A stretch of DNA of 64,000 nt from a virus, in IMG/VR virus record IMGVR_UViG_3300028840_004626, positions 30,549-94,548 of that record; one strand, written 5' to 3'. Position 1 is the stretch's first letter. Every line of letters begins with the position of its first letter. Position numbers and translations under genes: made by a program. The notes under the pieces are model-generated. The model saw only the letters and a list, made by a program, of their open reading frames with translations, was not told the DNA's origin and made no database searches. Shown here piece after piece: positions 14,027 through 59,612 of this stretch.

Positions 14027-15655
14027 GTGGCAACCAAGGCTCTTAGCGCACAGCGTATCGTCAATGCTTTTCCTATGTGGTCTGAAACCCGTATGAACGA
14101 GCAAAGTCTTGGTTATCAGTTTGCCAACGTCATTGGCAATCGCATGGACGATATGCTGAAGCAAATTCAGAAGATTCGAGATAGCTATTATATAGCGTTA
14201 GCTAATGTGGCCGATATCGATCTGTATTACTATATGAGGTTGCCAGATACCTATGAGTTTACCAAGGATGATGATGATACCACTGAGTGGATATATACTC
14301 CACCAACAGCAAGCGGACTCGTTGATGGCACTTATTTTTCAGTTTCGGCGCCAACAGAAAATACAGTTGAGAACTTTTGGTATTTGACTCCACCGAGTCG
14401 CATTTCTCTTGGCACTACAGCGTCTGGCGCTTATCTTATGGCTAGCGGATACGCATGGCAATCACCACTTTCTCCGGTCGTGGTATCTGGGACTATTGAT
14501 GTTCCCAATCGTCTCTATGTAACTGTTTCGGGCGGTTCACAATACCTATATGTTGATGATTACAATATTACGTCTCGCACTATTGTGCAGCTTGATGGGG
14601 AGGATCGACCTGGGGGCGAGCTTATTGAAGAGATGTATTATGTCTATGATGAGATTCAGCGCAGTATCCATGAGTTTAGCCAGCTTGATAAAGTTAATAT
14701 ATATACTCCCAACAATAATAGTGACATTTTTGTGACTGTTCAATCGGCCAGCTACAATCTTCCCGAGCTGCCTCACGCATGGAGAGACATGACCCAGACA
14801 TCTTATCGAGATGACATGGAACTGTTTTGGGGCATTGGGCAGGGTGATGTCGATGGCCAGTGTACGTTAGAATTGCGAAAATATAATGCTGACGATCCAA
14901 CAATTCGCTTAGGAGGATTTACGGCGACCAGTGCTTTTCAGAGTTATGAATTGTTAAATACCAGCAGTCAGCGCATCCAGGCTAGAGACTTTGCAGTTGA
15001 GCCGCATTCTGACAATATATGGGTGGTTGATTCTGGGGTGCTTTACCTCTATGACGGAAATCTATATTACCCGAATATGCAAGGTATGACTGGGAGAAAT
15101 TATGATGCACCGTCAGTTATTGAACCCAGCAGCTATTGGGTAGTCCAAAACGAAGAAGTCAAACTGTATTACACCTGGAAAAGGCCAACAAGCGAAATCA
15201 CCCAATATCGTATTTGGGTAGAGAAGCCTGATGGCAACAAATATAGTATTGTTGGTGGTGTTGAGGGCGCATATCAAACAGGGGCCGGTTCCTGGAATGC
15301 TGCGTCGTTTATGACTAATAGAAGAATTCAGCAACCTGACACCTTTACGATGGATCAGCGGGGCGACTATGTATATGCGCTCGAGGTCCAGTATGCTGAC
15401 GAGACGTCGTCGATAGACAAGAGGGTTATTTCGGTGCTGTCGAAAACGCCTGAGGCCCAATTTGGTTTAGCTTCAGCCATAGGTAGCCATAATGAGATTA
15501 TAGGAATTGATATTGACAGCGAACAGAAACTATGGGTCCTAGATACTTTGGGCTATAAGTATCAAGTCAATCTGCATTACGATGTGATGATTGTTGATTT
15601 TGATCAAAAGATTGTCTATTTCCGGGAGCCATACGAACAGGTCAGGGTATATTAA
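14027..15655 (+). CDS. Baseplate/virion structural protein
   Basis: 542 aa, acidic and aromatic beta-rich; GTG start 2 bp after J gene; cluster of xSG motifs. Confidence 0.6.
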   Translation: MATKALSAQRIVNAFPMWSETRMNEQSLGYQFANVIGNRMDDMLKQIQKIRDSYYIALANVADIDLYYYMRLPDTYEFTKDDDDTTEWIYTPPTASGLVDGTYFSVSAPTENTVENFWYLTPPSRISLGTTASGAYLMASGYAWQSPLSPVVVSGTIDVPNRLYVTVSGGSQYLYVDDYNITSRTIVQLDGEDRPGGELIEEMYYVYDEIQRSIHEFSQLDKVNIYTPNNNSDIFVTVQSASYNLPELPHAWRDMTQTSYRDDMELFWGIGQGDVDGQCTLELRKYNADDPTIRLGGFTATSAFQSYELLNTSSQRIQARDFAVEPHSDNIWVVDSGVLYLYDGNLYYPNMQGMTGRNYDAPSVIEPSSYWVVQNEEVKLYYTWKRPTSEITQYRIWVEKPDGNKYSIVGGVEGAYQTGAGSWNAASFMTNRRIQQPDTFTMDQRGDYVYALEVQYADETSSIDKRVISVLSKTPEAQFGLASAIGSHNEIIGIDIDSEQKLWVLDTLGYKYQVNLHYDVMIVDFDQKIVYFREPYEQVRVY

Positions 15656-15676
15656 CGCACATGAGGGGTTTCTTGG

Positions 15677-16621
15677 ATGGCAGCAACGATATCTGGATTC
15701 GGACATAAGTTCAACGTCCACGAGATAGCTACGGTTGCTGTTCCTTCTGCACGTACTACTTGGAACCAATTTGACGAACACGGCCTAGTCTTATCTCTAG
15801 AACGCCTAAGAGGGGAAACCAACTGGGAATACAAGCGTCGTCTCCAGGATGTTTTTGTCAATATGGCAAATTCATCCTATCGCGGAATGGTGAATGGCAT
15901 AACCCGCGAGTTGGGCCTGGCTCTTTTTGAGCCCCTGGTCATTAATCCTAAGGTTGACCATGCAGGCAACTTCCTAGCCCCAGATCCATATATCAGATTT
16001 GATGGAGCATATCTGTACCTTTACTCAGATTATGGCAACGATATGCTTGATTGGGCTATCGACCGATACGAACCAGGTGGCAATTATGAGCATCTTTATC
16101 GGCTTGCTGAATTCGTCAATACAACTGCATTTTTCGAAGCCCATATTATTGAGGGCATTGATCCATATACGCGTTCCATGACGATAGTAAATCAGTCTAA
16201 TCGAACAATGGTAATCAGCGAAGATGCCCAGGAAAGCACACGATTTAATCTAGAAAATGATAAGATCGTTCCGGGATCCATATCATTTTCGGATACAAAA
16301 ACGTTTCGTCGAGAGATGTCTTCGGCATCTAGTGTTGCGGCAGCTGGACAGTACCATATTAACTATAAATCTGGCATGGTTACCGTTGGCAGCGTTCCGC
16401 CCCCAGGAGTCACTATTAGATATCAACATAGCGAATATCCGTTTTTGCCCAAGGCAAGCCCTGTAATTGTTCACGATATTACGAGCGAGGGGTTTAGGTC
16501 TAAGATGTTTGCTCAAGAATTACAGGAAGATGGAACGTATGAATTAGCGCTACCAACTGAGGTTGGCGTTGATATAATGAATGAATTATTGTCAGTAATT
16601 CCAATGTATTGGGGAGTCTAG
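15677..16621 (+). CDS. Baseplate wedge-like protein, paralog A
   Basis: FDEHGLVLSLERLRGETNWEYKRRL resembles the wedge/tail protein I LD..G....R..GE.D..YR.RL motif; GQYHINYKSGMVTV module. Confidence 0.65.
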   Translation: MAATISGFGHKFNVHEIATVAVPSARTTWNQFDEHGLVLSLERLRGETNWEYKRRLQDVFVNMANSSYRGMVNGITRELGLALFEPLVINPKVDHAGNFLAPDPYIRFDGAYLYLYSDYGNDMLDWAIDRYEPGGNYEHLYRLAEFVNTTAFFEAHIIEGIDPYTRSMTIVNQSNRTMVISEDAQESTRFNLENDKIVPGSISFSDTKTFRREMSSASSVAAAGQYHINYKSGMVTVGSVPPPGVTIRYQHSEYPFLPKASPVIVHDITSEGFRSKMFAQELQEDGTYELALPTEVGVDIMNELLSVIPMYWGV

Positions 16622-16622
16622 T

Positions 16623-17591
16623 GTGGCAAGTAGCCTAGTACAGACAGGACATCAGTTTCATGTTCATTCTGTTGAGATAGTTGCTGGTCCTATTGGCAGC
16701 ACAGATGGCTTGCGTCGAGTCAAATTTCCCAATCAATTCGACGAGTTCGGATCCCTGGTATCACTGGAGCGTTTGCAAGATGAGACTAATTGGGAGTATC
16801 GCAGACGAATCCAGGACGTCATGGTTAATCTGGCTAATGCGAGCTATCGTGGAATGGTTAACGGCATTACTCGTGAGCTTGGCTTAAGCCTATATGATTC
16901 TCTAATTATCAATCCCAAAATCAATATGAATACGGGGCGATTTCTGGCCCCAGACCCCTATATTAAGTTTGATGGGGTGTATTTGTATCTGTATTCTGAT
17001 TATGCTAATGGCGTTCTAGACTGGGCTATTGATCGCTATGAACCGGGAGGAAACTATGAACACGTTGGCAGACTGGCTTCAATGGTGAATACCACCTCAT
17101 TTTTTGAGGCACATGTAGTAGAAGGTATTGATTTATATGACAAATCTATGACAATATTAAATCAATCTAATCGCAATATTGTTAGATTTGAAAGAATCCC
17201 CAGTAGCACGAAGTTCGCACTCAAGAATACGAGGATTGTTCCCGGAACTCTATTTTTTGCTAATCGCACCACATTTAAAACAGAGGTAGAATCTGCAGAC
17301 TTAGTTTTACAAAAGGGACAGTACTATGTAGACTATCATAAGGGGATTGTTGTTGTATTCAGTGTGCCTACGTCGGGCGAAATTGCCCGCTATCAATATG
17401 TAAAATATCCTTTTTCTGCAACGGCAAGTCCTGTTATACTACACGATATCAATAAAGACAGTTTCAAAGTTAAGATGTTTTCACAGGTATTACAAGACGA
17501 TGGAGGATATGAGCACGGGAAGGTTACAGAATTAGGGGTAGATATAATTAATGAGCTAATGTCGGTTATCCCTATGTATTGGGGAACATAG
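16623..17591 (+). CDS. Baseplate wedge-like protein, paralog B
   Basis: Full-length paralog of the preceding gene (FDEFGSLVSLERLQDETNWEYRRRI ... ELMSVIPMYWGT). Confidence 0.65.
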   Translation: MASSLVQTGHQFHVHSVEIVAGPIGSTDGLRRVKFPNQFDEFGSLVSLERLQDETNWEYRRRIQDVMVNLANASYRGMVNGITRELGLSLYDSLIINPKINMNTGRFLAPDPYIKFDGVYLYLYSDYANGVLDWAIDRYEPGGNYEHVGRLASMVNTTSFFEAHVVEGIDLYDKSMTILNQSNRNIVRFERIPSSTKFALKNTRIVPGTLFFANRTTFKTEVESADLVLQKGQYYVDYHKGIVVVFSVPTSGEIARYQYVKYPFSATASPVILHDINKDSFKVKMFSQVLQDDGGYEHGKVTELGVDIINELMSVIPMYWGT

Positions 17592-17616
17592 TAGAAACAA
17601 AAAATAGTGCTACTAT
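17588..17616 (+). promoter_or_regulatory. Candidate extended -10 promoter overlapping an inverted repeat
   Basis: TG-c-TACTAT at 17608-17616 in the longest intergenic gap (41 bp, AT-rich); ATAGTAG (17588-94) is the reverse complement of CTACTAT (17610-16); GGAGG follows. Confidence 0.4.
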
Positions 17617-17632
17617 AAGACATTAGCGGAGG

Positions 17633-20095
17633 TTGTCTTTGGCTTTATTAGCGTCCACAGCATCTGGTGTTTTAAGTTTGAATATACCCGTTACCTCAGC
17701 TCGTACTGAGGCTTATGGGCCTGCTGCGCCTGCCGCTATTGGCACCCTATCTCACTATGTGTCCACCGAGCATCCCAATACGGGCAACTTTATCAAGGGT
17801 TTCCAGTGGGATGCCAGGGTATGGTATAGCGAAGAACAGGAAAACATCGATCAGGTTGTTCCCGTCCTTTGGGACCCAACAATCTCTGGCATCACCAGTA
17901 CTCGTTTTCAGTCTGGCATCGGCTCTAATCGGGATCTCGAATACCAGAGATCGGTATTTATTCCATCGTCCGGTCTTGCGTCCGCAGGAATGTACCGTGT
18001 CTGGGCTCCTGAAATTCGTCATGGATATTATTATGACTATGCTACAGAGGGGTATCTCTACAGCGATGACTCAGAGGTAGTATATCCAACCTATAGCGGC
18101 GTTGTGCCGGGAATGGCCCTAACATCAGCAGCCGATGGGTTTAATCAGGTTGAATTATTGTCTGTTCCTAAGGTTGGTGTTCCAGTTACAGCTCAACGTT
18201 ATCGGTGGAACAGTGCGCAGGGTAAGTATGAAGTCGATTTAGATATTCAAAAGAAGGTTAATTTCACAGGATTGCGTGATGCTGATAATGTGCGCCAAAA
18301 TACCTGGAGCACGCAGAAAAATACTGTTTTATGGGATTTGGTTGATCCCGAGGAGCCAGAATTTATTGTCGTGGACAGTGGGATTTATCCGACTATCCCT
18401 ACTGCGCTATTTAATAAGCAGTTCGTAGATCAATATCCCTCCACTAGTGCCCTGGAAGAATTGGGCACTATGACTGGCGGGTCTGCCGAACAGTTTCATC
18501 TTAGCTATGCTCCCATTGATAATAGTATGCCCGTGGACGTTTATGCTTATCTGGTCGCATCAGGCACCCAGACCAAGTATGAGGCTATTCCTTTCAGTCA
18601 GACTATCGCCACAGGAGTTAATCAAGCTAAGATTGATTATGACATGGGCATTGTCGAATTTGGGGATCCGACTACTTCAGGCGTTGTGGTGCCGGCAGCT
18701 GGGTATACTGTAGCTGCACGCTACTGGAGAACAGTGCGCGTTGAATATGAACCAGAAGAGTCTACAGATTTGGTCCTAGCAACAGAGGCTAATACGAACC
18801 CCATATATAGAACTTCTGGTCGCGGATTTGTATATCTCTCGACAACGGCTGATGATCCTGCTTCCATTACCCTATCAGCAGAGGCACCGTCGTTACAGCT
18901 TAATGTTTTTGGCCCAGTATATGTTGGCAACGCTTATGTTCCGGTGGTAGCTACGGTCAAAGATGCGTTGGGTCGTCCGCTAGAGGGACAAACTGTTCAG
19001 ATTTTTACAACTAGTGAGCCTGTGATAGGGAGCTTTGGTGCATTTGGTGATACGGCCACGACTATTACAGACCATCTTGGCGAGGGCCGCACCTATTATA
19101 CTCCGCCCCGTAGCGTTGCAGATCTCGGGGAATACATTACAGCTTCTGGTTATCGTATTGACGATTCGCCTACATATACGGGGGTAAACCGCACAACGAT
19201 CTTAAGCTCAGAGGATTTACTTCTTGAGGGCAATCTCGATGATATCTTTTTATACGAAGTGCATACCGATGATCCGTCTCAAGGATACAAGCGCAATGAG
19301 TTAGCTGATAGTTCTGAGGTTCAACTCAATGAATACTACAGGGATTATTTTGATAGCGAAGATATCCAAGGGCCAACAGGATTAACCAGTGGTGTTTTAT
19401 CTACTGTGCTCGATAATCTAACTTCTAGAGACTGGGAATATAACTATCGTGAAACATGGGGCATGTTACAACCTACGTTATTTAATGCATCGACTAGCAA
19501 TGGTCGAAAAGTGTTAGTAACAACTTATGATTCGGACATTTATAATCCCCATACTTTCAATCAGGGGGCTGTCGCGCCATTTCAGCCCATTGATGTTCTG
19601 TCAACGGATGCAGGTTATGATGTTGTATTTGATACAACCCAGTACAATCTGACATATCCAAGCGGAACAGCTGGAATTGCTCCTAGTGGAACCCTTCATT
19701 CATATTTCCTCGTAGCTCCCACGGCCGTTACGATGCAAGCGTCAGTGTACAATCAGAGACTCAATCAAAGCATTTTGAGCAACACAATTCAGATAAAACT
19801 GGATATTCCGCCATATCTTAGCGGCATGTGGACAGTAGATTCAATCAATCAAACACACATTGATGAAATTAATAGTGTGCTAGCTACAGGCATTGCGTCT
19901 GGTGCGCGCGTGGCACTGGGCTATAGGCTTAGGTCATCGAATGTGACTTTGGCTGGCGCGCTTAATGGAGTGACTTTCCTGGATGTGAATCCAGAATATA
20001 ATGCGCCTATATGGACAGCAGTGGAGCCAGAGGTGCCTGGATCTGGAGTATTGGCATCTGGCACTTATGCGCAACATAGTTTTACTATTACCTAA
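17633..20095 (+). CDS. Virion structural protein with Ig-like (Big_1-type) domain
   Basis: 820 aa; VVATVKDALGRPLEGQTV...TITDHLGEG Ig-like motif; IDYDMGIVEFGD wedge-type module; 17 SG dipeptides. Confidence 0.7.
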   Translation: MSLALLASTASGVLSLNIPVTSARTEAYGPAAPAAIGTLSHYVSTEHPNTGNFIKGFQWDARVWYSEEQENIDQVVPVLWDPTISGITSTRFQSGIGSNRDLEYQRSVFIPSSGLASAGMYRVWAPEIRHGYYYDYATEGYLYSDDSEVVYPTYSGVVPGMALTSAADGFNQVELLSVPKVGVPVTAQRYRWNSAQGKYEVDLDIQKKVNFTGLRDADNVRQNTWSTQKNTVLWDLVDPEEPEFIVVDSGIYPTIPTALFNKQFVDQYPSTSALEELGTMTGGSAEQFHLSYAPIDNSMPVDVYAYLVASGTQTKYEAIPFSQTIATGVNQAKIDYDMGIVEFGDPTTSGVVVPAAGYTVAARYWRTVRVEYEPEESTDLVLATEANTNPIYRTSGRGFVYLSTTADDPASITLSAEAPSLQLNVFGPVYVGNAYVPVVATVKDALGRPLEGQTVQIFTTSEPVIGSFGAFGDTATTITDHLGEGRTYYTPPRSVADLGEYITASGYRIDDSPTYTGVNRTTILSSEDLLLEGNLDDIFLYEVHTDDPSQGYKRNELADSSEVQLNEYYRDYFDSEDIQGPTGLTSGVLSTVLDNLTSRDWEYNYRETWGMLQPTLFNASTSNGRKVLVTTYDSDIYNPHTFNQGAVAPFQPIDVLSTDAGYDVVFDTTQYNLTYPSGTAGIAPSGTLHSYFLVAPTAVTMQASVYNQRLNQSILSNTIQIKLDIPPYLSGMWTVDSINQTHIDEINSVLATGIASGARVALGYRLRSSNVTLAGALNGVTFLDVNPEYNAPIWTAVEPEVPGSGVLASGTYAQHSFTIT

Positions 20096-20110
20096 TTAGG
20101 AGGAACCCTT

Positions 20111-22741: not shown

Positions 22742-22758
22742 TTGATTGAGGAATTAAC

Positions 22759-25038
22759 GTGTCATTATCTGTAGGTGGACATAAATTTAAAGTTAGCCAA
22801 GTTCCCTTCTCGGCCGAGGTTCCTTGTCGTGTTAATGTCAAGAAACGTCGAGAGAAGGTAGTATATCGCGCACTGAGTGACAACGACAATATAAATATTG
22901 AATATCTGATTGGAAATACAATTTCGCCAGATGATAATGTATATATTTCTGATCGCAGCACCTCTCTTGTTCAAAATCGTGTTCCTTCAGCTGATGATAT
23001 TACTACAGAGACGACATCTTCATTTACTCTGAACGTTGACCAATTTTTAGTTACAGATATCTTTACTTCACCAACACCGACACAGCCATCCCAGCCATTG
23101 TTCTACGTACATACACTAGAAAACTTTAACAGCACAGTAGATAACTTTGCGTATAAAGAGTTGATCTCTATTGAGTTTGCTAACTACGATCTGCAATCCA
23201 CTGAGCTGTCAGCGTACGTCTTAGATTCAACCACCGGAGAGTTCTTTAATAACTTAGAAAATTCGTATAATGAAGATACCGGCGAAGCCAATGTAACGTT
23301 TATTAAATATGCTGTTCGCACCACTCTAACAAATTCATCTACTATTGAGGTATTCCATGAGTTGTTGGATAATGAGCCCATATATCAAGAGGCATCTTTT
23401 GACGACATTGATGAGTTTGGTATTTTGCTTCCAAGCGTTAAGCGCTACCTGATTGATGAGCTTTTGGGGGGCACACAGTTTCTTATTACCATGCCGTCTA
23501 AACAGGTATACGCCTACAAGGAATTGCCAGAATCTCGTATTCGTCTGTTGCCGCCGACTGCCACAAGTGTGTCTGATCTATGGAATGTTCGAGTTACAAA
23601 TGGCAAGTTTATTACTTCGCTCAATTATACCTCTACTGTATTTCGCAATTATAAGTATCAGATTGCTGAGTTCGATTCACAAACATTTACCCCATATCCG
23701 CCTTATAAATCACAGGTAGAAGAAACAGCAACATGGATTACCCCTGGGCTATGTCAAGTAGCCAAGAATGTTGTTGATGACGTAAACTTGAATTTCTATG
23801 TTGACGTTATTGTGCTGAGTCGTACCGGAACAGTCAAATATGCCTACAGCACTGATCCACAAAAAATAGGAACCCTATACGGGATTAGTTCGGTATCCTA
23901 TACTGCCGGCATACTAAGTGTTGATCAGCCTAATGGATTTATTGAATTATCTGGAACTACGCGCGACGATGACGAGATTTTAGTCAGTTACGTGACGAAA
24001 GAAGAGGAGTATGAGTTCACCTCTTTAGACTTTAATCCTGTTAGTAACCTCGATATCCTTAATCAGCGTATTGTTCTTTATATTTCTCCCGAGAGTGTGG
24101 GAACTGGTAGCTTAGATAGGAGTTTGTATTATCTGGTTGTTGATCCCCTAGGCAAGATTATCTATTCAAGTCAGGCGGACGAGAATGCTGCTGGGCTCGA
24201 TCCAGCGACCCAGAAGCTTCTAGCAGAGGACTTTGATACCACTGGCACCCCAACCCACACATTTTATTATGATAAGACATCTACTACTGCGGGGTTAGCT
24301 AGTAGGGCCAGTGGTGTTAATCCAAGCAGTGTTGAGGATTTTTCGTTTATCGATAAATATACTGTTGAAAGTCAACTGTTTAGTTCTCTTACAACGGTCT
24401 CTGGTACTACCCTTGAGAACCTGACCGAGAACGGTCGTTTCCTGGTTCTCGGAGATGTATATGTCGGAGAAAGTCAACGACCAACTGCTTTTACTGAATT
24501 TGATGTTCGCATAGAAGGCGGCGGGATTAAAGATGACCAGGTCACAGATGCCTTGGCAGAGCAGCCAGAGGCTGCGTGGTATTGGGATTTCATTGCCAGG
24601 AGGCCCTATCCTGCTACAACGGCATTTTATGTTGAGGTTCCACAAACTCTTTTATCAACTCATGGTGGAAGATTTACACGTAGCGAAATCAAAACTCTAA
24701 TTGATAAACATATGCAGCTAGGTGGATATGCTGCGTTAAATACCTATGGGGTAGATCCAACAGTTACTGGTGTATCAACCTCGTCTGGCTCAGCACTGAT
24801 TGCATGGCCGAGCTATGGATCATCAACTACGTACGCTATTTTCCAGTCAAAAAATATTGATGGCCCATTTAGCCAGTACAATAATGTTACCTATAATGAT
24901 AGGTCTGCGGGCAATTGCGTGCTGATGACTGGTTTCATTCCGAATACCAAGTACTATTTAGAAGTAAGGGCAACAAAGGATAGCGATGTATCGGCTGGTC
25001 CTCTAGTAGCCATTACTACGACAGCCTTAGGGGGATAA
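22759..25038 (+). CDS. Baseplate structural protein with C-terminal fibronectin type III-like domain
   Basis: 759 aa; C-terminal ALIAWP...YAIFQS...GFIPNTKYYLEVRAT is FN3-like; ILSVDQPNGFIEL module. Confidence 0.65.
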   Translation: MSLSVGGHKFKVSQVPFSAEVPCRVNVKKRREKVVYRALSDNDNINIEYLIGNTISPDDNVYISDRSTSLVQNRVPSADDITTETTSSFTLNVDQFLVTDIFTSPTPTQPSQPLFYVHTLENFNSTVDNFAYKELISIEFANYDLQSTELSAYVLDSTTGEFFNNLENSYNEDTGEANVTFIKYAVRTTLTNSSTIEVFHELLDNEPIYQEASFDDIDEFGILLPSVKRYLIDELLGGTQFLITMPSKQVYAYKELPESRIRLLPPTATSVSDLWNVRVTNGKFITSLNYTSTVFRNYKYQIAEFDSQTFTPYPPYKSQVEETATWITPGLCQVAKNVVDDVNLNFYVDVIVLSRTGTVKYAYSTDPQKIGTLYGISSVSYTAGILSVDQPNGFIELSGTTRDDDEILVSYVTKEEEYEFTSLDFNPVSNLDILNQRIVLYISPESVGTGSLDRSLYYLVVDPLGKIIYSSQADENAAGLDPATQKLLAEDFDTTGTPTHTFYYDKTSTTAGLASRASGVNPSSVEDFSFIDKYTVESQLFSSLTTVSGTTLENLTENGRFLVLGDVYVGESQRPTAFTEFDVRIEGGGIKDDQVTDALAEQPEAAWYWDFIARRPYPATTAFYVEVPQTLLSTHGGRFTRSEIKTLIDKHMQLGGYAALNTYGVDPTVTGVSTSSGSALIAWPSYGSSTTYAIFQSKNIDGPFSQYNNVTYNDRSAGNCVLMTGFIPNTKYYLEVRATKDSDVSAGPLVAITTTALGG

Positions 25039-25041
25039 GCA

Positions 25042-25587
25042 ATGTCAGTTAATGTAATTTGGTCTTATACAAATGGAGGTACCGCAATTAGCGACTTGAT
25101 TAATCATGGGAATATCGCTAATGGGAATACGTCGACTGCTAAAACGATTTATTTACGTCATGATGGCGCAAGTGAGATTACTAATGTTGGCGTATATATT
25201 AGGCAATATTCTGGTACATATAATGGGGATGCTACTGCAGCTTCCGATTTTGCTGAAATAATTGCCTGGGGAGATAATAGTGCCTCAAATACATTTGGGG
25301 GTATACATATTAATTGGGATGCAGTAGGAGCATTTCCTGCGGCATCATGGCCCCTATATAATGACAAAGATCCCTCGAATGGTTTTACTCATCGGACGGG
25401 CGTGGGTGATAGCGAAGGCAATGCGGTTACTATACCTACAGCTACTGGAGCTACGACGGCTGGTGAAATTGAGGCTGGCGCTTCCCCTAACGTACGGTTT
25501 CAACTACGGGTTCAGGTTCCAACAGCCGAAGATACGACCGGAACACGGCAATTTGACCAGGTGATACGATATAGCTTTACAAGCTAA
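25042..25587 (+). CDS. Small beta-rich virion structural protein
   Basis: 181 aa, G/T/A/N-rich Ig-like strands; inside the structural module. Confidence 0.55.
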   Translation: MSVNVIWSYTNGGTAISDLINHGNIANGNTSTAKTIYLRHDGASEITNVGVYIRQYSGTYNGDATAASDFAEIIAWGDNSASNTFGGIHINWDAVGAFPAASWPLYNDKDPSNGFTHRTGVGDSEGNAVTIPTATGATTAGEIEAGASPNVRFQLRVQVPTAEDTTGTRQFDQVIRYSFTS

Positions 25588-25597
25588 AGGAGAACTT

Positions 25598-33415: not shown

Positions 33416-33429
33416 CGAGGAGGAGCACC

Positions 33430-35052
33430 TTGGCTAATGACAGGCTAAATAACTTCAGTTTTTCGTTTACGGTACGAAATGCTCCCAAGAGTGGCCCCAC
33501 ATCGTCTGATGCATGGAATGATAGCTTTACTGAATTGTCTAATGATTTGGCGGCTATTGCTTCTGAGTGGAACAATAAACTGGTCACAATCATTGGGGGT
33601 TTGCCAAGAGGCGTACAGGATACAGCGGTTAATGTATTCGTAAACGGTCTTGACGGGAAGAATATGTGGGTAGATCAAGCGATCACCTCGACTTCCGATG
33701 AGACGAATTACTACAATAGTGGAAAAGATCGACCCAATACAGTTAAAGAACAGTTTGACCATATCTATACGACAATCTCCAATGAAATTGAAAGCTTAGA
33801 AGATACGATTGCATCTTCGGCAAGTGGCCTTACCACTGACCAGAAAAACCGTATTGGCGCGAATATCTTTGATCCAACTGCAACCTCCAGCTCCTCCAGC
33901 CTTGATGGCAAATCAGAGAATAACAGACTAAATATTGTTCAGGTTGCCAACGATCTCTACGGCGATGATGTTCAACTAAATAATAATGGTATTGCCATAT
34001 TGACTAATTCGGTCAAGACTATGGTAGATGCCCTTCTTCAAATTCATAATGGTGCCTGGGATAATGATGCGGTAGTTAGTCACGTCGGAGCACTTACCGG
34101 AACGCAGAACGACATTTCGTCATCGCATCCTGGCGATGACACCTTCGTTGGCGTGTGTGTGGACCTAGAGAATGACCTCAACCGAATTCGTCAGGAAATT
34201 CGCGAATTAAGAGGAACAGGGGGATGGCAGACAGGCAATACGGCGCTCTATGTTGGCGGGGCCGATTCTCTGGAAGACTTACTGGTTAGCACTCAGGGAT
34301 CTGCTGCTAAGTCGGCGACAAATCCTTGGGGCTATGATTATACTGACGTAGACGGGGTTTCAACACGCTTTGATGCCGTTCGTGATTTTACGGGTCAGAC
34401 TACACATCTAGACGCATCTCCCAGTTATTCTAGTAACAACTATGTGACCGATGCGACATCTCTGGAAACTGCTATTGGTGCTCTTGATGCAGGGGCTGCG
34501 GCAGCTGTAGCTAGCAACGCGGCCGATATTGCCGAGAACGCTACATGGATTGCAACCCATTCTGGAAACTTGTATGGGACTGTTTATCCTCAGCTGGCAG
34601 CATTAGAAACCTTTGTGGGGCAGGATAGCAATACTGATTCGACACCAGACTACAGCAGCAACAATTATGTAGTAGATGGAGAATCTCTCGAAGATGCTAT
34701 TGGTCGACTAGATGACGCCCTGGCTACAGTATCGGGCTCGTTTACAACGGCGTTTACTAGTTTGACAGATACCCCATCAGACTATTCGGGTAAATCTGGG
34801 CAGTATGCCAGAGTTAATACGGCTGAGACTGGATTGGAATTTGGATATGTGACGCTATCGGGCAATGTAACATTATCTGGAAATGTTACAGTAGAAACGC
34901 TCACAAGCCATTCACATATTGTAACCAACACGGGCTATATGATGGTGGAAAGTAGTGGCTATGGGCTTGTATTGCAGGCCCCGGATTCAACATATTACAT
35001 GGTCCAAGTAACGAACGGTGGAGCGCTGACCACAACAGCGTTTGTACCTTAA
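33430..35052 (+). CDS. Tail fibre / fibre adaptor protein
   Basis: 540 aa; coiled-coil segments, two YSSNNYVxDxxSLExAIGxLD repeats, FTSLTDTPSDYSG...VN...GLEF fibre motif, C-terminal GLVLQAPDSTYYMVQVTNGGAL. Confidence 0.7.
   Translation: MANDRLNNFSFSFTVRNAPKSGPTSSDAWNDSFTELSNDLAAIASEWNNKLVTIIGGLPRGVQDTAVNVFVNGLDGKNMWVDQAITSTSDETNYYNSGKDRPNTVKEQFDHIYTTISNEIESLEDTIASSASGLTTDQKNRIGANIFDPTATSSSSSLDGKSENNRLNIVQVANDLYGDDVQLNNNGIAILTNSVKTMVDALLQIHNGAWDNDAVVSHVGALTGTQNDISSSHPGDDTFVGVCVDLENDLNRIRQEIRELRGTGGWQTGNTALYVGGADSLEDLLVSTQGSAAKSATNPWGYDYTDVDGVSTRFDAVRDFTGQTTHLDASPSYSSNNYVTDATSLETAIGALDAGAAAAVASNAADIAENATWIATHSGNLYGTVYPQLAALETFVGQDSNTDSTPDYSSNNYVVDGESLEDAIGRLDDALATVSGSFTTAFTSLTDTPSDYSGKSGQYARVNTAETGLEFGYVTLSGNVTLSGNVTVETLTSHSHIVTNTGYMMVESSGYGLVLQAPDSTYYMVQVTNGGALTTTAFVP
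34387..34716 (+). repeat. Two imperfect ~35-aa coding repeats in the fibre gene (approximate limits)
   Basis: FTGQTTHLDASPSYSSNNYVTDATSLETAIGALDA vs FVGQDSNTDSTPDYSSNNYVVDGESLEDAIGRLDD. Confidence 0.8.
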
Positions 35053-35067
35053 GCAGGAGTTGAGTCA

Positions 35068-37308: not shown

Positions 37309-37320
37309 GGAGTCAATAAT

Positions 37321-39486
37321 ATGCCTCGACATTTACATCGTGATGAAATAAGTATTCGTAGCATCGGGGAGTTTGATGGCGCTTCTGCAGCTACTCTGGA
37401 GAATGCGATCCATAACCTGAAAACGACTGGCGACGAGGCTATTCTTGCCATCGGCGAAGACCTAACTATTGCTAGTAATTTAACTATTCCAGCTAATGTT
37501 ACGCTACGGGTTTATCGCGGTGCTACGATTACCATAAACAATGGTGTTGCAGTTACAATCCTTGGTGGCGTAGAGGCAGGAGATTATCAAATATTTTCGT
37601 TTGGTGGGGGCAGCGCTAGTGTCGATTTCTCTTCTGCCAAGCAGAGGGAAGTTAACGTATTATGGTGGGGCGCAGTAGCTGATGATTCAACCGATAACTA
37701 TGCGCCTTTTCAATATGCAATTAATTCTTCTGCGGCTGTTATCCACGTACCAGGAGAGGGCACATATAGATTTGATGACAAGCCTCTTATTAATTTGCCA
37801 GGCATCAGGTTGCAGGGCCAAGGGGCCACACTTAAAGCGGGAAACAACTTTTCTCCTAGCCGCATTCTAGAAATTTTAGGCGGAGCATCGGATATTATCA
37901 TTGATGGTTTGGTGTTTGATACCAATGTTAGCGAAAATGGCGGGTCTGTTTATGAGGCTGCAGCTGGCGACAGAATTTACGGGATCATGCTTAACGACAC
38001 TGGCGGCCAATCACCGTCTAATGTTGTGATCTCGAATTGTCAATTCAATAATATGACGGGTGGCCCGATATATGTATTTTGTGACGGGCTAGATTACCTA
38101 ACAATCAGGGACTGTAATGTAGATACTTCTCGCCTGGCTATGTTTATTAGCCCCAACAGCGTGAACTGGAAGTTTGTTCCACAGATTACGATTGACAATT
38201 TTCACGCCAAGGCCTGCAATGAAGGCTTTTATATTTATTATGGAAATTTAAATGTCACCAATAGCTCAGTAGAGGTTAGGTGGAGGTATGGCATTTACCA
38301 GGGCCCACCTACATACCTTGGCGATAGTGATACAAGGTGGACCAATTGCAGATTTTACCATAATGGAGAATATAGCTCTCGCGACAAAATGATTTGGATT
38401 TTCGGTGGAACTGGTGGAGTTGTTACAACCATTAATACTGCACAGTTTACTAATTGTTTATTCTATATTGGGTATTATTGGACAGCTGCGACATCCGTGG
38501 ACGTGGACTTACCAGCTCGCGCTACGTTTGATAACTGTACTTGGGAGGGCGGAACCTACGGGCTAGGTTGCGGTCCAGATATTGCGGCAGCAGTATATGA
38601 AAAGCCTCCGGTTAAAGTCAATAACTGTAATATGTTCTTAAATCGGTATGCAATCTATGCATCTGCGCCGATTCAGGTTTTCAATACAACTATTGCATCA
38701 GGATATGATGGCGGCGGATCGTGTATCTATTTGGCGACAGCTAATGCAAATACGTCAACCTTCGTGGGGTGTCACTTAGGCTGGGATCAAAATGAAAATT
38801 ATAGCAGTGGCTACAGAACTGCTGGCGCCATTTGTTCTGGGGTTAGGGCGATTGCCACTACATTCGGTGCTGGTATTACCAACCAATTTAATATTGCTGG
38901 TTCTGGAACCAAGCAGACTAGATGGGACATTCGAGCTAGCCAGCCGCCTCACAATAAAGACGGCAAGGCCTGGAGGCAGAGTAGCAGTAGGCCGTTTGAC
39001 GACTCAGTTCTTACCCAGGGAGTTTTTCAGTGGAGAGCAGCTCCCACGTCGGCCGGAACAGCAGGATGGGCAATAACTAAAACCGGAAAAGGCCACCAAG
39101 AATCTTATGGTGTTACTACATCAGGAAGCTACATAATCACATCAGTATCTCAGGCTGTTACGTGGAGTGTCGGAGACCGATTAATTAGCGACCGCGCATT
39201 TCCTAATGCCTACGGGGTCACGGTTACTGGGGTTGACTATTCGACAGCACAGGTTGGATTGGATAAGCCAGCCCTATATACTTGTGATTCTGAAGAGCTA
39301 TATGAGGGTCGCATTAGTCACTGGGGGCACATTGAGCCAATCACTACAGCTCGCGACATTACCATTAGCTCTGATGACTCTGGATTGGTTTTGACTGATA
39401 GCGACGCCAAGAAATGGAAATTCCGCGTCAACACTAAGGGATCTCTTTATGCCGAAAGACAGCTTGACGTGCCGGAGGATTACTAA
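37321..39486 (+). CDS. Tailspike / depolymerase 2 (right-handed beta-helix)
   Basis: WWGAVADDSTDNYAPFQYAIN cap, NCQF/NCRF/NCLF rungs; N- and C-terminal modules shared with tailspike 1. Confidence 0.8.
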   Translation: MPRHLHRDEISIRSIGEFDGASAATLENAIHNLKTTGDEAILAIGEDLTIASNLTIPANVTLRVYRGATITINNGVAVTILGGVEAGDYQIFSFGGGSASVDFSSAKQREVNVLWWGAVADDSTDNYAPFQYAINSSAAVIHVPGEGTYRFDDKPLINLPGIRLQGQGATLKAGNNFSPSRILEILGGASDIIIDGLVFDTNVSENGGSVYEAAAGDRIYGIMLNDTGGQSPSNVVISNCQFNNMTGGPIYVFCDGLDYLTIRDCNVDTSRLAMFISPNSVNWKFVPQITIDNFHAKACNEGFYIYYGNLNVTNSSVEVRWRYGIYQGPPTYLGDSDTRWTNCRFYHNGEYSSRDKMIWIFGGTGGVVTTINTAQFTNCLFYIGYYWTAATSVDVDLPARATFDNCTWEGGTYGLGCGPDIAAAVYEKPPVKVNNCNMFLNRYAIYASAPIQVFNTTIASGYDGGGSCIYLATANANTSTFVGCHLGWDQNENYSSGYRTAGAICSGVRAIATTFGAGITNQFNIAGSGTKQTRWDIRASQPPHNKDGKAWRQSSSRPFDDSVLTQGVFQWRAAPTSAGTAGWAITKTGKGHQESYGVTTSGSYIITSVSQAVTWSVGDRLISDRAFPNAYGVTVTGVDYSTAQVGLDKPALYTCDSEELYEGRISHWGHIEPITTARDITISSDDSGLVLTDSDAKKWKFRVNTKGSLYAERQLDVPEDY

Positions 39487-41891
39487 TGAGCTACGATTTA
39501 CAACGGGTCTATCTGAGTGATTTTTCGACCAATACGAAAACATTGGCTAATTATACTAACTTGTCCAATGCGATATCATTGCTGGGCTCAACAGAATGCG
39601 TCCTAATATACAATGAGACTGAAGCGACCAAGCTGAATTACACTTTGATTATTCCAGAGAACATCGTGTTGCGTTTTGAAAAGGGCGCTTACATTCCTTT
39701 GGATCAGAGTGGCAACCTACGCTGCTATGGAAGAATCGATGCTGATCGAGAGAAAATCTTTGATTTTCCTAGTAACCGTACTCAACCTGTTGTATTTTAT
39801 CACGCCCAGCCCGTTTATCCGGAGTGGTTTGGTGCTGTTGGTGATGGAGTTACTGATGATGCGGCAGCGCTGAGATGTGCTCTTGCTGCAGTACATACTG
39901 ATGCTGAGCTAACTATTGATAATAGATTTGGAACCCTTGACTGGGGATGGAGGCACTTCTATACAACAGAGGGCCTAACAACAGTCTATGGCTGCCATAT
40001 GAAAACCAGTGGCGCTCGCATTACGGTGCCCAATACTTTCGAGGGGACAGTTATCAATATCGATGGGCCCCGTGCAAATGAGATTTATAGCCTAGATTTA
40101 CATTTTCCAGAAATACATAAAGCCCCAAGTGGCGGCAATGCTACGTGGGCGCAGGATGCGATTGGCATCCAAATGACCAACGTGCGCAATTCTAAGATTC
40201 GCATCGACAAGGTTAGTGGTTTTTGGAAAGGCATTGTCGCACGGGGCAATCAGCAGGGTTTTGTATACAATCAGATTTGGCTTGGCAATATTGTCAATTG
40301 TCAGTATGGATTACAGTTTGAGTTTGCGGCTTCTGGCTGGGTGAATGAGAACACCTGGTATGGTGGCAAGTTTAGTGATGCGACAGGAGCATCTACTGAA
40401 AACCTCGAATGTGTATCTATTAATGCTGGAGACGAAACATCAGTCATCCTCAATGATCACAATATGTTTATTCGGCCTTGTCTTGAAAGCACTAACCCAA
40501 GGCGAACTGCCGTTATCATGGGTGGTACCAATAATCAGTTTATGCAACCTCGTCTTGAGGGTATTCGGAACGCTGGTTTTCGGTTTACGACAAGTGCTAT
40601 TGCGAACAAGATTGAGCGTGCAGAACGCATGTTGATAGACCCTGTTATTTTAGACTCAGGATCGATCAATACTGTTATCAGCGCAGAAATGCTTAATGTT
40701 ACTACGCGCGATAACACTCGTGGAAATGATGCTCTAGTTATTGGCGCCAACAAAAAGGAACAGATAGAGAACGCGATGACGGTTGGGTCCTTGCCTCAAT
40801 CGGGGTGGTATCGTGGATGTGTGGGCTTTACTCAAGGAAGTTCTATTCGGTGGCCCGCATTTTCAATTGATGTAGATTCGGTAGCTGGGGTCAATGTCAA
40901 TACTGATACGTTACATACATTGTTGCCAACAATCGATACCGGCCTAACTACAGCTAGGGGGCTTTACTACAATACTAGTGGAGATGCTGCAATTGGTGGT
41001 TTAACCAATGGCACTTGGTATTATGCGATTCCGGTGGCTTCTAGTGGATTCAAATTGGCTAGCAGCTCAACCAATGCTGCTGCGGGCACCTGCATTAATA
41101 TTACGGGTGTTGGTGGCGGAGGAACCCATAACTTTTCTAACTCGGCCAAACAGCTAGAGCTGCAAAGCTGGGGAAGCTATTCTGCCATTAATCTGGACGA
41201 CGATATTTATAACCTGTATTTCGTGCCAGGCAAGGGCCTCTGGTTCACTGGGATGCAGCTCAATAGCGAGGAAAGTTCCACGGCTCGCTATCGCATGCTG
41301 TATGTAGATCAACAATATAAGACCTTTAATCCTTCTACTGATATTACGGGCAATGCCTATCATTGGTACGTAACTGAAGCTTCCCATGGTTTTTATACTG
41401 GAGAGCGAGTTTATTACACTGGGTCTACATCAATTAGTAGCGAGCTAACCTCGGGCGAACCAGCTTATGTTATTAATAGGTCAACCAATACTTTTAGACT
41501 GGCCAAGAATATTCATCTGGCAGGCATTGGTACGCCAGCCTTGCTAACTGCTACTCCAAATGAAACACACAATATTCAGAAAGTTCGATTAAAGTTCGTA
41601 ACTGGCGATGATGTTCGCCATCGCGAAGTAGGTATTGCGAGAAAGTACTATGGTGCCTGGAATCCTGGCAATATCGCTCCTGGTAATAGTGTAACTAGAG
41701 AGATCAATGTAGACTTTGCAGTTCCTGGGGACCTGGTCTTAGCGAACCTATCGTCTATTCAACATCAGCAATGTATTATTACGGGAACTGTAGTACGTGA
41801 CCATTATGCAAATATTGTACTTGCAAATGTGGCTGCTAGTGGTGTGACTATTGGTTCTGGCGTATTGACTGTTGCCGCATTCGAACAATAA
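39486..41891 (+). CDS. Tailspike / depolymerase 3 (beta-helix plus two fibre repeat modules)
   Basis: PEWFGAVGDGVTDDAAAL cap; beta-helix; two (H/T)GxxT..xYY...F(K/R)LA modules near the C-terminus. Confidence 0.8.
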   Translation: MSYDLQRVYLSDFSTNTKTLANYTNLSNAISLLGSTECVLIYNETEATKLNYTLIIPENIVLRFEKGAYIPLDQSGNLRCYGRIDADREKIFDFPSNRTQPVVFYHAQPVYPEWFGAVGDGVTDDAAALRCALAAVHTDAELTIDNRFGTLDWGWRHFYTTEGLTTVYGCHMKTSGARITVPNTFEGTVINIDGPRANEIYSLDLHFPEIHKAPSGGNATWAQDAIGIQMTNVRNSKIRIDKVSGFWKGIVARGNQQGFVYNQIWLGNIVNCQYGLQFEFAASGWVNENTWYGGKFSDATGASTENLECVSINAGDETSVILNDHNMFIRPCLESTNPRRTAVIMGGTNNQFMQPRLEGIRNAGFRFTTSAIANKIERAERMLIDPVILDSGSINTVISAEMLNVTTRDNTRGNDALVIGANKKEQIENAMTVGSLPQSGWYRGCVGFTQGSSIRWPAFSIDVDSVAGVNVNTDTLHTLLPTIDTGLTTARGLYYNTSGDAAIGGLTNGTWYYAIPVASSGFKLASSSTNAAAGTCINITGVGGGGTHNFSNSAKQLELQSWGSYSAINLDDDIYNLYFVPGKGLWFTGMQLNSEESSTARYRMLYVDQQYKTFNPSTDITGNAYHWYVTEASHGFYTGERVYYTGSTSISSELTSGEPAYVINRSTNTFRLAKNIHLAGIGTPALLTATPNETHNIQKVRLKFVTGDDVRHREVGIARKYYGAWNPGNIAPGNSVTREINVDFAVPGDLVLANLSSIQHQQCIITGTVVRDHYANIVLANVAASGVTIGSGVLTVAAFEQ

Positions 41892-41908
41892 ATGTAGGAG
41901 AAATAAGA

Positions 41909-43978
41909 ATGTCCTCATTGCAAAAAACGTTTACTCCGCTCTATAGCTTGCACGCATATAGCAATCAGAGTCTCAGTGGGCTCATAGCTAGTATTGGTAG
42001 CGAAGAGGCAACGATTCTGATTGATACCCCGTGTCAAATTACTACCAATCTTATTCCGCCCTCCAATATTTCTTTTAAGTTTGTAAAGGGTGTCACTATG
42101 ACTATTGATGACACCAAGTGGATTGAGATATTGGGCAGCGTTGACGCGGGGCCATGGCAGATCTTTGAGTTCGGTGGTACTAACGCATGGGTGAAATTTG
42201 GAGATGGTTCGCGGCAAACCTATTCCCATGTTGATTGGTTTGGTGCTGATCCAACTGGAGTAAGTGACAGTTACTGGGCTATATGGAGGGCCATTATTTC
42301 TCGCGCTGGCCAGGCCGAATTGGGAGAACAGCTCAATGCAGTTGGTGGAGAAGTTCGTTTTGGCAAGGGTACATATCGCTACGGAACACCAATTGTAATC
42401 GAAGATCTTGCTAATATCCGATTCCAGGGTGCTGGCAATAGGCTCTATCAGGATTTTAAACGTGCAGAAACAAGGCTAATCTACACTGGAACTGGTGGCC
42501 GGTATCATGGGGGCGCCGCTGGCACTGCGGGCACCGACAGCATTCCTTCGTCCAGTCAATGTGGGATTTATAATACAACCAATTATGGTCGAGGCTTTCA
42601 GATTAAAGATATGGCCATCTTGTATGATCAGATTGATTTTCAGGGCTGCTTAGTTTATTCGGATACTCCCGGGTTTTATTGTGAGAACGTTACTTTTGGT
42701 GATGATTCAACCGATGCTGGGTATGGGGTTGGTGGAGTTAGAAAGTATACCGCATTTGCCCTTGTGTGTTTAGGTGGCACAGAATGGCCCCATTTCTATC
42801 GTTGCTCTTTTGACTGTGCGCAGCGTGCTGTTTATGTTCCAAGACTCGGCGGAATGAAGTGCAACGGGCTTTTTATGGACCAGTGTGTTGTATATACGGT
42901 CAATACAGCTGGGATTGACTATGCTGGTGTTGGTAACCTGGGAGCAACATTTCATAGGGTAACTATCGATCCGGTACGCTATGCTCTTGCCGCCCAGGGT
43001 GCGACCAACATGGCTTATGGCATGAGAATAGCCAGCAACTCTTTTGAGGTTTCCAACTGTGTATTTGCGGGATCGAGTTCAGACTATATGCCAACCGAGT
43101 GGGCCTTCTATCCATATGGTCGAGGCAGCATGAGAGATTGTTTATTCTTCACTAACTGGGGTGGTGTTCTGGTAAGTGGCAGCACCCTGGATGTAGCTAG
43201 TAACGAAATTTGGGCACAAAACCCTGTTAATATAATGTCCGGAGGATGGTTCGGGGGTAATAATCGATATCGCCAGGTTAATGATCATGCTAACGTGAGC
43301 TGTAGGCGAGCGATAACGATTGCTTCCGGGCAGGACGTTGGGGTCTACGGGGGTTCTATTGATTTTGTCCAAACATCTCCGGACGACTTTTATGGCACTG
43401 GCGGAACCAATCCTTTTCATTGGGATATTTACGTAGGTCGTATCGCCAGCAGTAATCTCGATAATATCAATGGCAAGATTACATACAATCCTAAGTTGAG
43501 TAACTCATACTTTGGGGTTAATGATGTAACTGGAGCCATGGAGATTGTTCCTATTAACGCCAATCGGTTTCAGGAGATTGAGGGAGATACCGTGCTGACT
43601 AGCGGCGATATCTATAGGTTTAATGGTGGTATATGGCGTATCAATGTTGCGGCTTCGGGACATTGTTTTGTTCAGTTGCCATCTGGAAAGGCTGGATACG
43701 AATTATCGTTTTTTAACCTAAATGGATGTAATGTAACCCTCTTGGCAAGTGGATGGAACCGGGGCGGCTTTGATGACCGTATTTGGGCTTCTGGCACCAA
43801 TACAACGGTTGGCAACCCAGCACTAGTACATAGGCCTGGGACTAGAATGTCGACTTGTCACCTGAGGTGTCACGGGGCATCTGATTATTACCCGAGATGG
43901 GTATTAACGAGTGCTATTGGTGGCTGGGCTCCTAGTGAGAAAACTGCTTTTAATGGGAACCTTACGCCAGGCTATTAA
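41909..43978 (+). CDS. Tailspike / depolymerase 4 (right-handed beta-helix)
   Basis: VDWFGADPTGVSDSYWAI cap, GGEVRFGKGTY, RCSF/NCVF/DCLF rungs. Confidence 0.8.
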   Translation: MSSLQKTFTPLYSLHAYSNQSLSGLIASIGSEEATILIDTPCQITTNLIPPSNISFKFVKGVTMTIDDTKWIEILGSVDAGPWQIFEFGGTNAWVKFGDGSRQTYSHVDWFGADPTGVSDSYWAIWRAIISRAGQAELGEQLNAVGGEVRFGKGTYRYGTPIVIEDLANIRFQGAGNRLYQDFKRAETRLIYTGTGGRYHGGAAGTAGTDSIPSSSQCGIYNTTNYGRGFQIKDMAILYDQIDFQGCLVYSDTPGFYCENVTFGDDSTDAGYGVGGVRKYTAFALVCLGGTEWPHFYRCSFDCAQRAVYVPRLGGMKCNGLFMDQCVVYTVNTAGIDYAGVGNLGATFHRVTIDPVRYALAAQGATNMAYGMRIASNSFEVSNCVFAGSSSDYMPTEWAFYPYGRGSMRDCLFFTNWGGVLVSGSTLDVASNEIWAQNPVNIMSGGWFGGNNRYRQVNDHANVSCRRAITIASGQDVGVYGGSIDFVQTSPDDFYGTGGTNPFHWDIYVGRIASSNLDNINGKITYNPKLSNSYFGVNDVTGAMEIVPINANRFQEIEGDTVLTSGDIYRFNGGIWRINVAASGHCFVQLPSGKAGYELSFFNLNGCNVTLLASGWNRGGFDDRIWASGTNTTVGNPALVHRPGTRMSTCHLRCHGASDYYPRWVLTSAIGGWAPSEKTAFNGNLTPGY

Positions 43979-43980
43979 TC

Positions 43981-44000
43981 TGGTATAATAACCTTGGAGG
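43981..44000 (+). promoter_or_regulatory. Extended -10 sigma70-type promoter plus RBS for the accessory operon
   Basis: TGGTATAAT (TGnTATAAT consensus) at 43981-43989 in an intergenic gap, GGAGG at 43996-44000, ATG at 44009. No good -35 seen. Confidence 0.65.
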
Positions 44001-44008
44001 TCAATTGA

Positions 44009-44464
44009 ATGGCTGTTACTAAAAACATTTTGCAGGTCAGGGACTACCAGGTATGGACCTCTGCCAATATGGTTGATGGCGATATCCTAGGAGTCTACGA
44101 ATCCCTGGGGCGCAGATGCGCTGATACGGTAACCCTGGAAAGCGCTGGGGGTGCCTCCCGGGTCAGGTTTAACGTTGCGCGTACTACGTATCGTGAACAG
44201 GGGGCCGTTTACAGCGGAACCTATCATGGCAATAGTCCGAACGGGCCATGGAGTCAAGCGTTGTTTCATAATGTTCACAATAATTTCGCAGGCTTGGGTG
44301 CTGGTGGATCAAGAAGCCCCGAGCTGGTTTACGAACATGAGGACGACCAGCAGCCCGATATTATTGTGGCTAATGGTACTACCCAGACCTGGACTAGAAC
44401 TGAAATTGCTGTTAATGACATTAAAATTGTCAATGCTTCAGGATTGCGCGTTACGGTGACCTAA
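44009..44464 (+). CDS. Hypothetical beta-rich protein (possible virion decoration protein)
   Basis: 151 aa ORF with strong RBS; first gene after the promoter. Confidence 0.6.
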   Translation: MAVTKNILQVRDYQVWTSANMVDGDILGVYESLGRRCADTVTLESAGGASRVRFNVARTTYREQGAVYSGTYHGNSPNGPWSQALFHNVHNNFAGLGAGGSRSPELVYEHEDDQQPDIIVANGTTQTWTRTEIAVNDIKIVNASGLRVTVT

Positions 44465-44471
44465 TAATGCT

Positions 44472-44960: not shown

Positions 44961-44969
44961 GAGGCTATC

Positions 44970-46010: not shown

Positions 46011-46019
46011 GGAGAAGGC

Positions 46020-55598: not shown

Positions 55599-55600
55599 GG

Positions 55601-59611: not shown

Positions 59612-59612
59612 A

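Follow-up and report, generated by a model that had tools for sequence, protein, structure and literature searches.

We analyzed a 64,000-nucleotide stretch of viral DNA (the window), which corresponds to bases 30549-94548 of the 94.5-kb IMG/VR contig IMGVR_UViG_3300028840_004626. Our subject is the Ser-Gly dipeptide (SG) that recurs in some of its virion proteins, and the possibility, raised in an earlier note on this DNA, that SG is an acceptor site for O-glycosylation by the phage's own glycosyltransferases (GTs). The contig belongs to an uncultured virus known from metagenomic data and is about 50% complete by estimate; the source phage has a genome of approximately 190 kb. All genes in the window are oriented on the plus strand. 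A myovirus baseplate module, including the gp6-like wedge subunit baseplate J (12795..14024), lies at the start of the window; then, as far as position 44464, come large virion proteins together with four tailspike-like proteins of the beta-helix type. The first GT gene stands approximately 1.5 kb past the last tail gene, where GT9, GT4a, GT4b, and more GT-like genes are found among the roughly 20 glycan genes that span 46020-63903.

The main carrier of the dipeptide is an 820-amino-acid (aa) baseplate-side protein (17633..20095), predicted to be a string of immunoglobulin (Ig)-like beta-sandwich domains, for which a tblastn search against 50,697 phage records found no match. The second carrier is a 542-aa protein encoded directly after baseplate J (14027..15655), and its N-terminal domain matches phrog_21059. 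This domain, of approximately 55 to 70 residues, is common to the 542-, 314-, and 322-aa proteins encoded in 14027-17591; the latter two are paralogs, and both match one single gene in each of the related genomes G002 and G003.

Ser-Gly counts in the window's proteins

The enrichment of SG was assessed with composition-preserving shuffles of each protein, and multiple testing was corrected for 46 proteins. The 820-aa protein contains 17 SG vs 5.5 expected, with only 4 GS, and at least 17 SG were obtained in 4 of 200,000 shuffles (p about 2e-5). SG is the top dipeptide of this protein, with instances that include PTISG, PTYSG, and PTTSG. The 542-aa protein contains 6 SG vs 2.7 expected (shuffle p=0.047), five of which, including the conserved PPTASG, cluster at residues 96-168 (cluster p=0.0016). 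Since the SG codons are diverse and the hexamers encoding SG in the 820-aa gene are frame-specific (17 in the coding frame vs 3 and 7 in the other two), the signal lies at the protein level, and a DNA-level motif was ruled out. The by-eye counts of the earlier note proved exact in every case: 17 SG and 4 GS in the 820-aa protein, five SG at residues 96-168 of the 542-aa protein, 0 SG in baseplate J, and 3 in a 1292-aa protein. Its claim of enrichment survived composition correction strongly for the 820-aa protein and, as a cluster and at the family level, for the 542-aa protein; most of the other proteins that it listed were at background.

Two further proteins had a nominal excess that was lost after correction for the 46 proteins. 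One is a 540-aa protein (33430..35052) with 10 SG vs 4.9 expected (p=0.017) and 2 GS, part of which form the cluster VTLSGNVTLSGN; its orthologs in G002 and G003 showed no SG enrichment. A tandem hexapeptide duplication, VTLSGN-VTLSGN at residues 474-488, supplies two of the ten SG in this protein. The other is an 801-aa tail-fibre or tailspike-like protein (39486..41891) with 12 SG vs 5.2 expected (p=0.003) and 7 GS, which contains AASGVTIGSGV and has no orthologs in the compared genomes. The 746-aa protein has the SG cluster VTASGNIEVTASGF, the 730-aa protein has SG at residues 419-480, and the 689-aa protein has five SG at residues 565-628. By shuffling, no significant SG excess was found in the 730-, 746-, 721-, 689-, 876-, 759-, 685-, or 1046-aa proteins, the 759-aa virion protein (22759..25038) having 4 SG vs 4.2 expected, and short SG doublets were not significant either (p 0.4-0.5).

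With the four enriched proteins removed, the region under study had 59 SG vs 49 expected (about 1.2). As a background, the observed-to-expected ratio (O/E) for SG was 1.13 to 1.15, both across the whole genomes of two relatives and among 599 other viral open reading frames (ORFs) of at least 300 aa. This general background tilts slightly to SG over GS (1.15 vs 1.01). None of the 599 unrelated viral ORFs reached a Poisson p<1e-4 for SG, and the head and tail-tube region upstream had no SG excess.

A clade-specific excess in two protein families

To place these counts in a family context, we pooled 40 homologs of the 820-aa protein with 27 to 52% identity and found 643 SG vs 236 expected, along with 221 GS, making SG the top dipeptide by far. 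Seven alignment columns were SG in at least 20 of the 40 sequences, and at the conserved columns the serine was rarely swapped for threonine (e.g., 33 S vs 1 T, and 36 S vs 2 T). Even the columns occupied by only one to three sequences held 155 SG vs 90 GS.

Baseplate J served as the anchor for locus retrieval and also as a negative control; its alignment brought up 48 related viral loci, of which 24 have an ortholog of the 542-aa protein and 23 an ortholog of the 820-aa protein. The comparison spanned 25 viral contigs of this kind. The sequences fell into an SG-rich group of 15, including the window, and an SG-normal sister group of nine others. In the SG-rich clade, the SG O/E was 2.33 for the 820 family (225 vs 97 expected; Poisson 6e-29) and 3.08 for the 542 family (104 vs 34 expected; Poisson 3e-22), whereas in the sister clade it was 1.16 and 1.15, respectively. 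The GS O/E in the SG-rich group was 0.79 to 0.89. SG stood out from all other dipeptides in this group (z=13.1 and 12.1 in the 820 and 542 families, with the next dipeptides at only 4.1 and 8.0), and the 820 family had TG at 1.09, NG at 0.97, and DG at 0.78. Together with the near-background sister orthologs, the latter two values do not fit generic beta-turn usage. All other ORFs of the compared loci had SG O/E values of 1.15 and 1.10 in the two groups, and the baseplate J family had 1.25 in the SG-rich clade vs 1.42 in the sister clade. In a family-by-clade table, the clades differed only in the 542 and 820 families and, mildly, in the 759 family (1.59 vs 1.16), whose window copy is unenriched. 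The SG excess in the 542 and 820 families is thus real, strong, and selected. Contrary to the earlier claim, it is no general property of the outer virion proteins; the 730-aa protein does not exceed the background, nor do the tailspikes.

The residues around SG showed a bias as well, with V/I enriched at -3, T/V at -2, A/T/P at -1, and V/I/L after the glycine. The consensus drawn by eye, [A/T/V/S]-S-G-[V/T/I/aromatic], was therefore roughly right, and the measured context refines it. Acidic flanks were not seen around SG; the enriched flanks were those given above. The form PT.SG occurred 16 times in the SG-rich loci, eight times in each of the 542 and 820 families, and not at all in their other proteins or in the SG-normal loci, and T.SG[VIL] occurred 68 times in the rich loci vs 5 in the normal ones. 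No homology between the 542-aa and 820-aa proteins was detectable by BLASTP (E=0.4), and common ancestry of the two was on this ground rejected as the source of their shared motif.

The number of SG sites is held more firmly than their positions. In the sister-clade orthologs, the columns that are SG in the window were occupied by unrelated residues (QG, LG, YA, and others), with the sole exception of RFQSGIG at residue 94 of the 820 family, which is SG in both clades. At sites 85 and 730 of this family, the glycine is kept in both clades, and the preceding residue alone differs. In the 542 family, P93 is invariant in all 24 sequences, and the S96-G97 that follows it is confined to the rich group. 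Pairs with less than 30% identity shared only 13 to 20% of their SG columns and kept the 2- to 3-fold excess; L042, for example, has 20 SG, just 2 of them at the window's 17 positions. SG private to subclades exceeded private GS in both families (66 vs 25, and 14 vs 2). The apparent turnover is inflated by alignment error, but the excess cannot arise from it.

Structure models place most of the sites near loops. In the AlphaFold2 model of the 820-aa protein (pLDDT 76.5), Ig-like beta-sandwich domains follow one another in a string, and 14 of the 17 SG are in coil; a fold search with this model returned generic Ig-domain strings only, plus a weak match to a contractile-injection-system baseplate chain. 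The model of the 542-aa protein is more confident (pLDDT 87.7, pTM 0.86), and its fold search gave no meaningful match (TM score of at most 0.2). Its SG sites are predicted to lie in hairpin loops (133 and 336), at a strand end (168), in a floppy loop (154), and inside strands (96 and 140). Contrary to what the earlier note expected, then, not all of the sites are in exposed loops, as two of the six are inside beta-strands in this confident model. Judging by the sister-clade orthologs, the fold of the 542- and 820-aa proteins does not require the motif.

The glycosyltransferase trio and its distribution

The GT genes start with a GT9-family gene (46020..47117), followed by those for GT4a (461 aa; 47126..48511) and GT4b (377 aa; 48511..49644), the latter adjoining GT4a throughout the SG-rich clade. 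Directly upstream of the trio is a gene for a volactin-like actin (44970-46010; PF25216, E=1.6e-57). Downstream of it, the variable part of a soluble glycan operon (49646..63903) was annotated by Pfam scans. It encodes methyltransferase-domain proteins, an RmlA-type nucleotidyltransferase, two SDR dehydratase/epimerases, and a DegT aminotransferase, as well as a GNAT protein, a GT2-like protein, a sulfotransferase-like protein (a weak Pfam match), and unassigned ORFs. None of the 22 proteins encoded in 44009-63903 has a transmembrane-like hydrophobic segment, which fits a cytoplasmic acceptor.

The single-domain GT9 and the GT4 pair were present in 10 of 10 SG-rich records with enough downstream DNA, the window included. 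The order GT9-GT4a-GT4b was found in all eight cassettes that were fetched (L080-L087), with 32 to 58% identity to the window proteins and variable genes after it, and the volactin-like gene was detected directly upstream in six of the eight. The sister clade, on the other hand, has a fused double GT9 of approximately 660 aa in place of the single GT9 and the GT4 pair, and PF00534 had no match in the sister-clade records with good coverage (the complete G003 and G022, G024, and G025). In G003, volactin precedes the fused double GT9, after which come three methyltransferases and then a polysaccharide pyruvyl transferase, indicating that the actin-GT9 pairing predates the GT4 pair. The earlier note had predicted that homologs from phages without the GTs would lack the motif. 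This was borne out to the extent that the sister clade, which has no GT4 pair, is at about 1.15 vs 2.3 to 3.1 in the SG-rich clade, although the sister clade is not GT-free. In the genome G010, which shows no SG excess, a single unrelated GT4 lies within the tail module.

With the two trait proteins (542 and 820) left out, a tree from 2787 concatenated columns cleanly separated the SG-rich and SG-normal groups with a support of 99. Because this is one clean split, the association of SG with the GT4 pair is perfect and yet a single evolutionary contrast. Another record, L046 (IMGVR_UViG_3300035661_000012, 154 kb), has no GT4, no GT9, and no SG excess; an 817-aa protein stands where the 542-aa protein is found elsewhere, and there is no ortholog of the 820-aa protein. 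Two SG-containing ORFs near distant GT4a homologs were considered as independent support and set aside. The first, L105:170-667 (IMGVR_UViG_3300010933_000088), is a 165-aa ORF approximately 9 kb upstream of such a homolog and consists of three 46-aa tandem repeats, each holding ..QSGPYL.. and ..CDTWSGIAH.., so that its SG sites are repeat copies and not independent. The second, L109:11398-12276, is a 292-aa ORF directly after a distant GT4a homolog (30% identity) on an unrelated 59.5-kb contig, with SG in ASG and VSGV contexts; its 7 SG vs 1.7 expected (GS 1) are nominal only, given a p of 0.002 among several hundred ORFs.

The best solved match of the GT4a family profile was the chlorovirus NY-2A protein B736L (3OY2, E=2e-17), followed by 5I45 (a group-1 glycosyltransferase, E=5e-8) and then a group at about 1e-6 that includes Gtf1, a GT of serine-rich adhesins. 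More distant relatives of GT4a, with 21 to 30% identity, were found on contigs of giant-virus metagenome-assembled genomes (GVMAG records among L125-L159), and from these sequence matches it looks like a GT4 lineage common to phages and nucleocytoplasmic large DNA viruses. A GT9 profile built from 10 phage orthologs and run against the PDB sequences matched 3TOV and the lipopolysaccharide (LPS) heptosyltransferases WaaC and WaaF. A C-terminal cysteine cluster, C-x2-C-x4-C-x5-C in most cases, is present in most GT9 orthologs and in both halves of the double GT9 of G003 (L029:1645-3621); only two of the four cysteines are left in the window GT9 (residues about 307-324).

A candidate acceptor motif, its alternatives, and known systems

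The confinement of the excess to the lineage with the conserved GT trio argues for a role as a tag for sugar attachment. We propose, with a probability of roughly 0.42, that SG is a lineage-specific short linear motif and a candidate Ser-O-glycosylation acceptor for the soluble GTs of the phage. The extended motif would be [V/I]-[T/V]-[A/T/P]-S-G-[V/I/L], with P-T-x-S-G-hydrophobic as its strongest form, and selection would keep it abundant on two non-homologous, beta-rich, baseplate-side proteins (542 and 820 aa) and, more weakly, on the 759-aa family. Before lysis, the soluble transferases may modify virion proteins in the host cytoplasm, either once these are folded or during assembly, with the clade-specific GT9-GT4a-GT4b trio as the core enzymes, while the variable downstream genes may build a decorated glycan by way of a dTDP-sugar pathway, an aminotransferase, and acetyl-, methyl-, and sulfo-transferase-like enzymes. 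Glycosylation is the best available explanation on the strength of a single phylogenetic contrast, the adjacency of the genes, the serine specificity, and analogy; we infer from sequence that the serine is modified and that a sugar is attached to it, as well as any priming role of a particular enzyme.

Several points weigh against this proposal. The motif does track the GT set, in line with the link to the phage's own GTs claimed in the earlier note, but the SG/GT4-pair association is a single bipartition and statistically about one event. L046 would be a second contrast, but it sits on a very long branch, flagged in the tree as a long-branch join, and its placement is unreliable (approximately unbiased test p=0.075). 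The distant GT4a homologs in other viral contigs had no robust SG-rich neighbors. The sister clade keeps its fused double GT9 together with methyl- and pyruvyl-transferases and probably glycosylates something as well, without an SG excess. The operon could act on DNA or another soluble acceptor instead. B736L, a GT-B enzyme, binds GDP-mannose, with no acceptor assigned to it (PMC9614988); the GT9 profile retrieved no TibC from the PDB sequences at E<=0.1, and a TibC-like identity of GT9 is not supported. In the 542-aa model, the predicted location of sites 96 and 140 within beta-strands is likewise awkward for an acceptor.

The excess might have a structural or assembly origin with no glycan involved, SG with its beta-branched flanks forming a lineage-specific hairpin or bulge, or a series of sites at which a partner or chaperone would dock weakly at the periphery of the baseplate, and the GT4 pair being shared merely by descent. 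We consider this rather unlikely, while recognizing that it would account for the many sites that the models place at strand-loop junctions and hairpins (14 of 17 in coil in the 820-aa protein; hairpin loops 133 and 336 in the 542-aa protein), for the glycine kept in both clades at sites 85 and 730, and for RFQSGIG being SG in both, and that a GT association made of one phylogenetic contrast is compatible with it. However, the sister clade retains both proteins without the excess, and the classic turn dipeptides NG and DG are unenriched in the 820 family. Moreover, the positions move while the number is held, which would be unusual if SG were part of the fold or a docking site at a set place, and the synteny comparison showed no clade-specific structural partner.

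That Ser-Gly marks some other modification or a processing event (acylation, proteolysis, or phosphorylation by a kinase of the phage, for example) appears very unlikely to us. The preference for serine over threonine and the positional turnover would suit any Ser-directed modification, and a kinase-like domain does occur in a 1093-aa polyvalent protein encoded upstream of the window (G000:C1:4578-7859), of which G002 has a weak homolog. However, this domain was undetected in three SG-rich genomes that are complete or nearly so (G002, G013, and G014) and present in the SG-normal G018 and G019. This phyletic pattern does not match the SG-rich clade, and the kinase was rejected as the writer of the motif; the GT set was the only clade-specific group of modifying enzymes seen. 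Across both clades, this kinase-like part has a patchy occurrence (G001, G018, and G019), and it was also undetected in G003. A chance or composition artefact, or by-eye selection in S/G-rich proteins, has a negligible probability as an account of the whole. It is favored by the return of most of the originally listed proteins to background after shuffling and by the slight general bias of SG over GS, and it stands for the 730-, 746-, 721-, 689-, and 876-aa proteins. For the 542 and 820 families, the shuffles refute it, as do the pooled family counts (p 1e-22 to 1e-29), the dependence of the signal on the reading frame, and the difference between the clades.

If the glycosylation proposal is true, glycosylated virion proteins would be predictable from sequence, the GT4a/GT4b pair would be candidate protein O-glycosyltransferases with giant-virus relatives, and one 542-aa substrate plus three enzymes would make a compact system testable in E. 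coli. Baseplate glycans could influence adsorption and protection from proteases or host defenses, and they could matter for phage-surface engineering. If the motif is structural instead, it would be a useful caution that a clade-specific dipeptide bias can mimic a sequon. To our knowledge, mycobacteriophages are so far the only case in which phage-encoded virion glycosylation has been chemically shown, and it lacks a defined acceptor motif. It is a further-reaching and doubtful proposition that a clade of ~190-kb aquatic phages O-glycosylates two SG-tagged baseplate-side proteins with a virus-type GT4 pair akin to B736L/A546L, with drifting positions but a steady number of sites, much like a glycan shield. 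In that case, an acceptor motif for protein glycosylation encoded by phages would be defined for the first time, and virion glycosylation in phages and giant viruses would be connected through an enzyme.

Among known systems, eukaryotic glycosaminoglycan attachment uses a Ser-Gly sequon for xylosyltransferase, with serine as the only acceptor and acidic flanks. The phage motif resembles it in its Ser-Gly core, and the operon holds the sulfotransferase-like gene mentioned above (again, a weak match), but the phage flanks are hydrophobic and beta-branched rather than acidic, and the Pfam scans of the operon found no xylosyltransferase-type family. Freeman et al. 2023 (Cell Host Microbe 31:1216), as cited in PMC12619734, reportedly described virion O-glycosylation of mycobacteriophages by phage-encoded glycosyltransferases, with the glycans said to be at the C-termini of capsid and tail-tube subunits. 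As in those phages, soluble phage GTs are here encoded beside structural genes, and the acceptors are presumed to be virion proteins. Unlike there, the candidate SG sites are internal and scattered over two baseplate-side proteins, and the GT set is far more extensive, with GT9, two GT4, and a pathway for decorated sugars. Chlorovirus capsid glycosylation, an autonomous process in the cytoplasm with the GT4 enzymes B736L/A546L (3OY2; PMC9614988), shares with our system the use of soluble viral GTs and non-canonical sequons, but its glycans are N-linked, and the identity of GT4a to B736L is low.

The closest parallel is that of AAH and TibC with their substrates AIDA-I and TibA, in which cytoplasmic GT-B enzymes, kin of the LPS heptosyltransferases, modify many serines in short loops of a beta-rich protein (PMC4358343). 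TibC and AAH heptosylate serine, not threonine, in beta-helix loops, e.g., Ser313 in ..QNSGGAV..; one of the mapped sites reads N-S-G-G, and the system has no strict linear sequon (PMC4358343). In the phage families, serine far exceeds threonine at the conserved SG columns, and most sites are predicted to be in coil. The cysteine cluster of the phage GT9 orthologs is reminiscent, in its position, of the iron finger of TibC (Cys339, 342, 358, and 370), although the spacing differs, and the enzymes that co-vary with the phage motif are the GT4 pair, not GT9. TibC/AAH remain the best functional analogy for the proposed Ser-directed glycosylation of the phage proteins.

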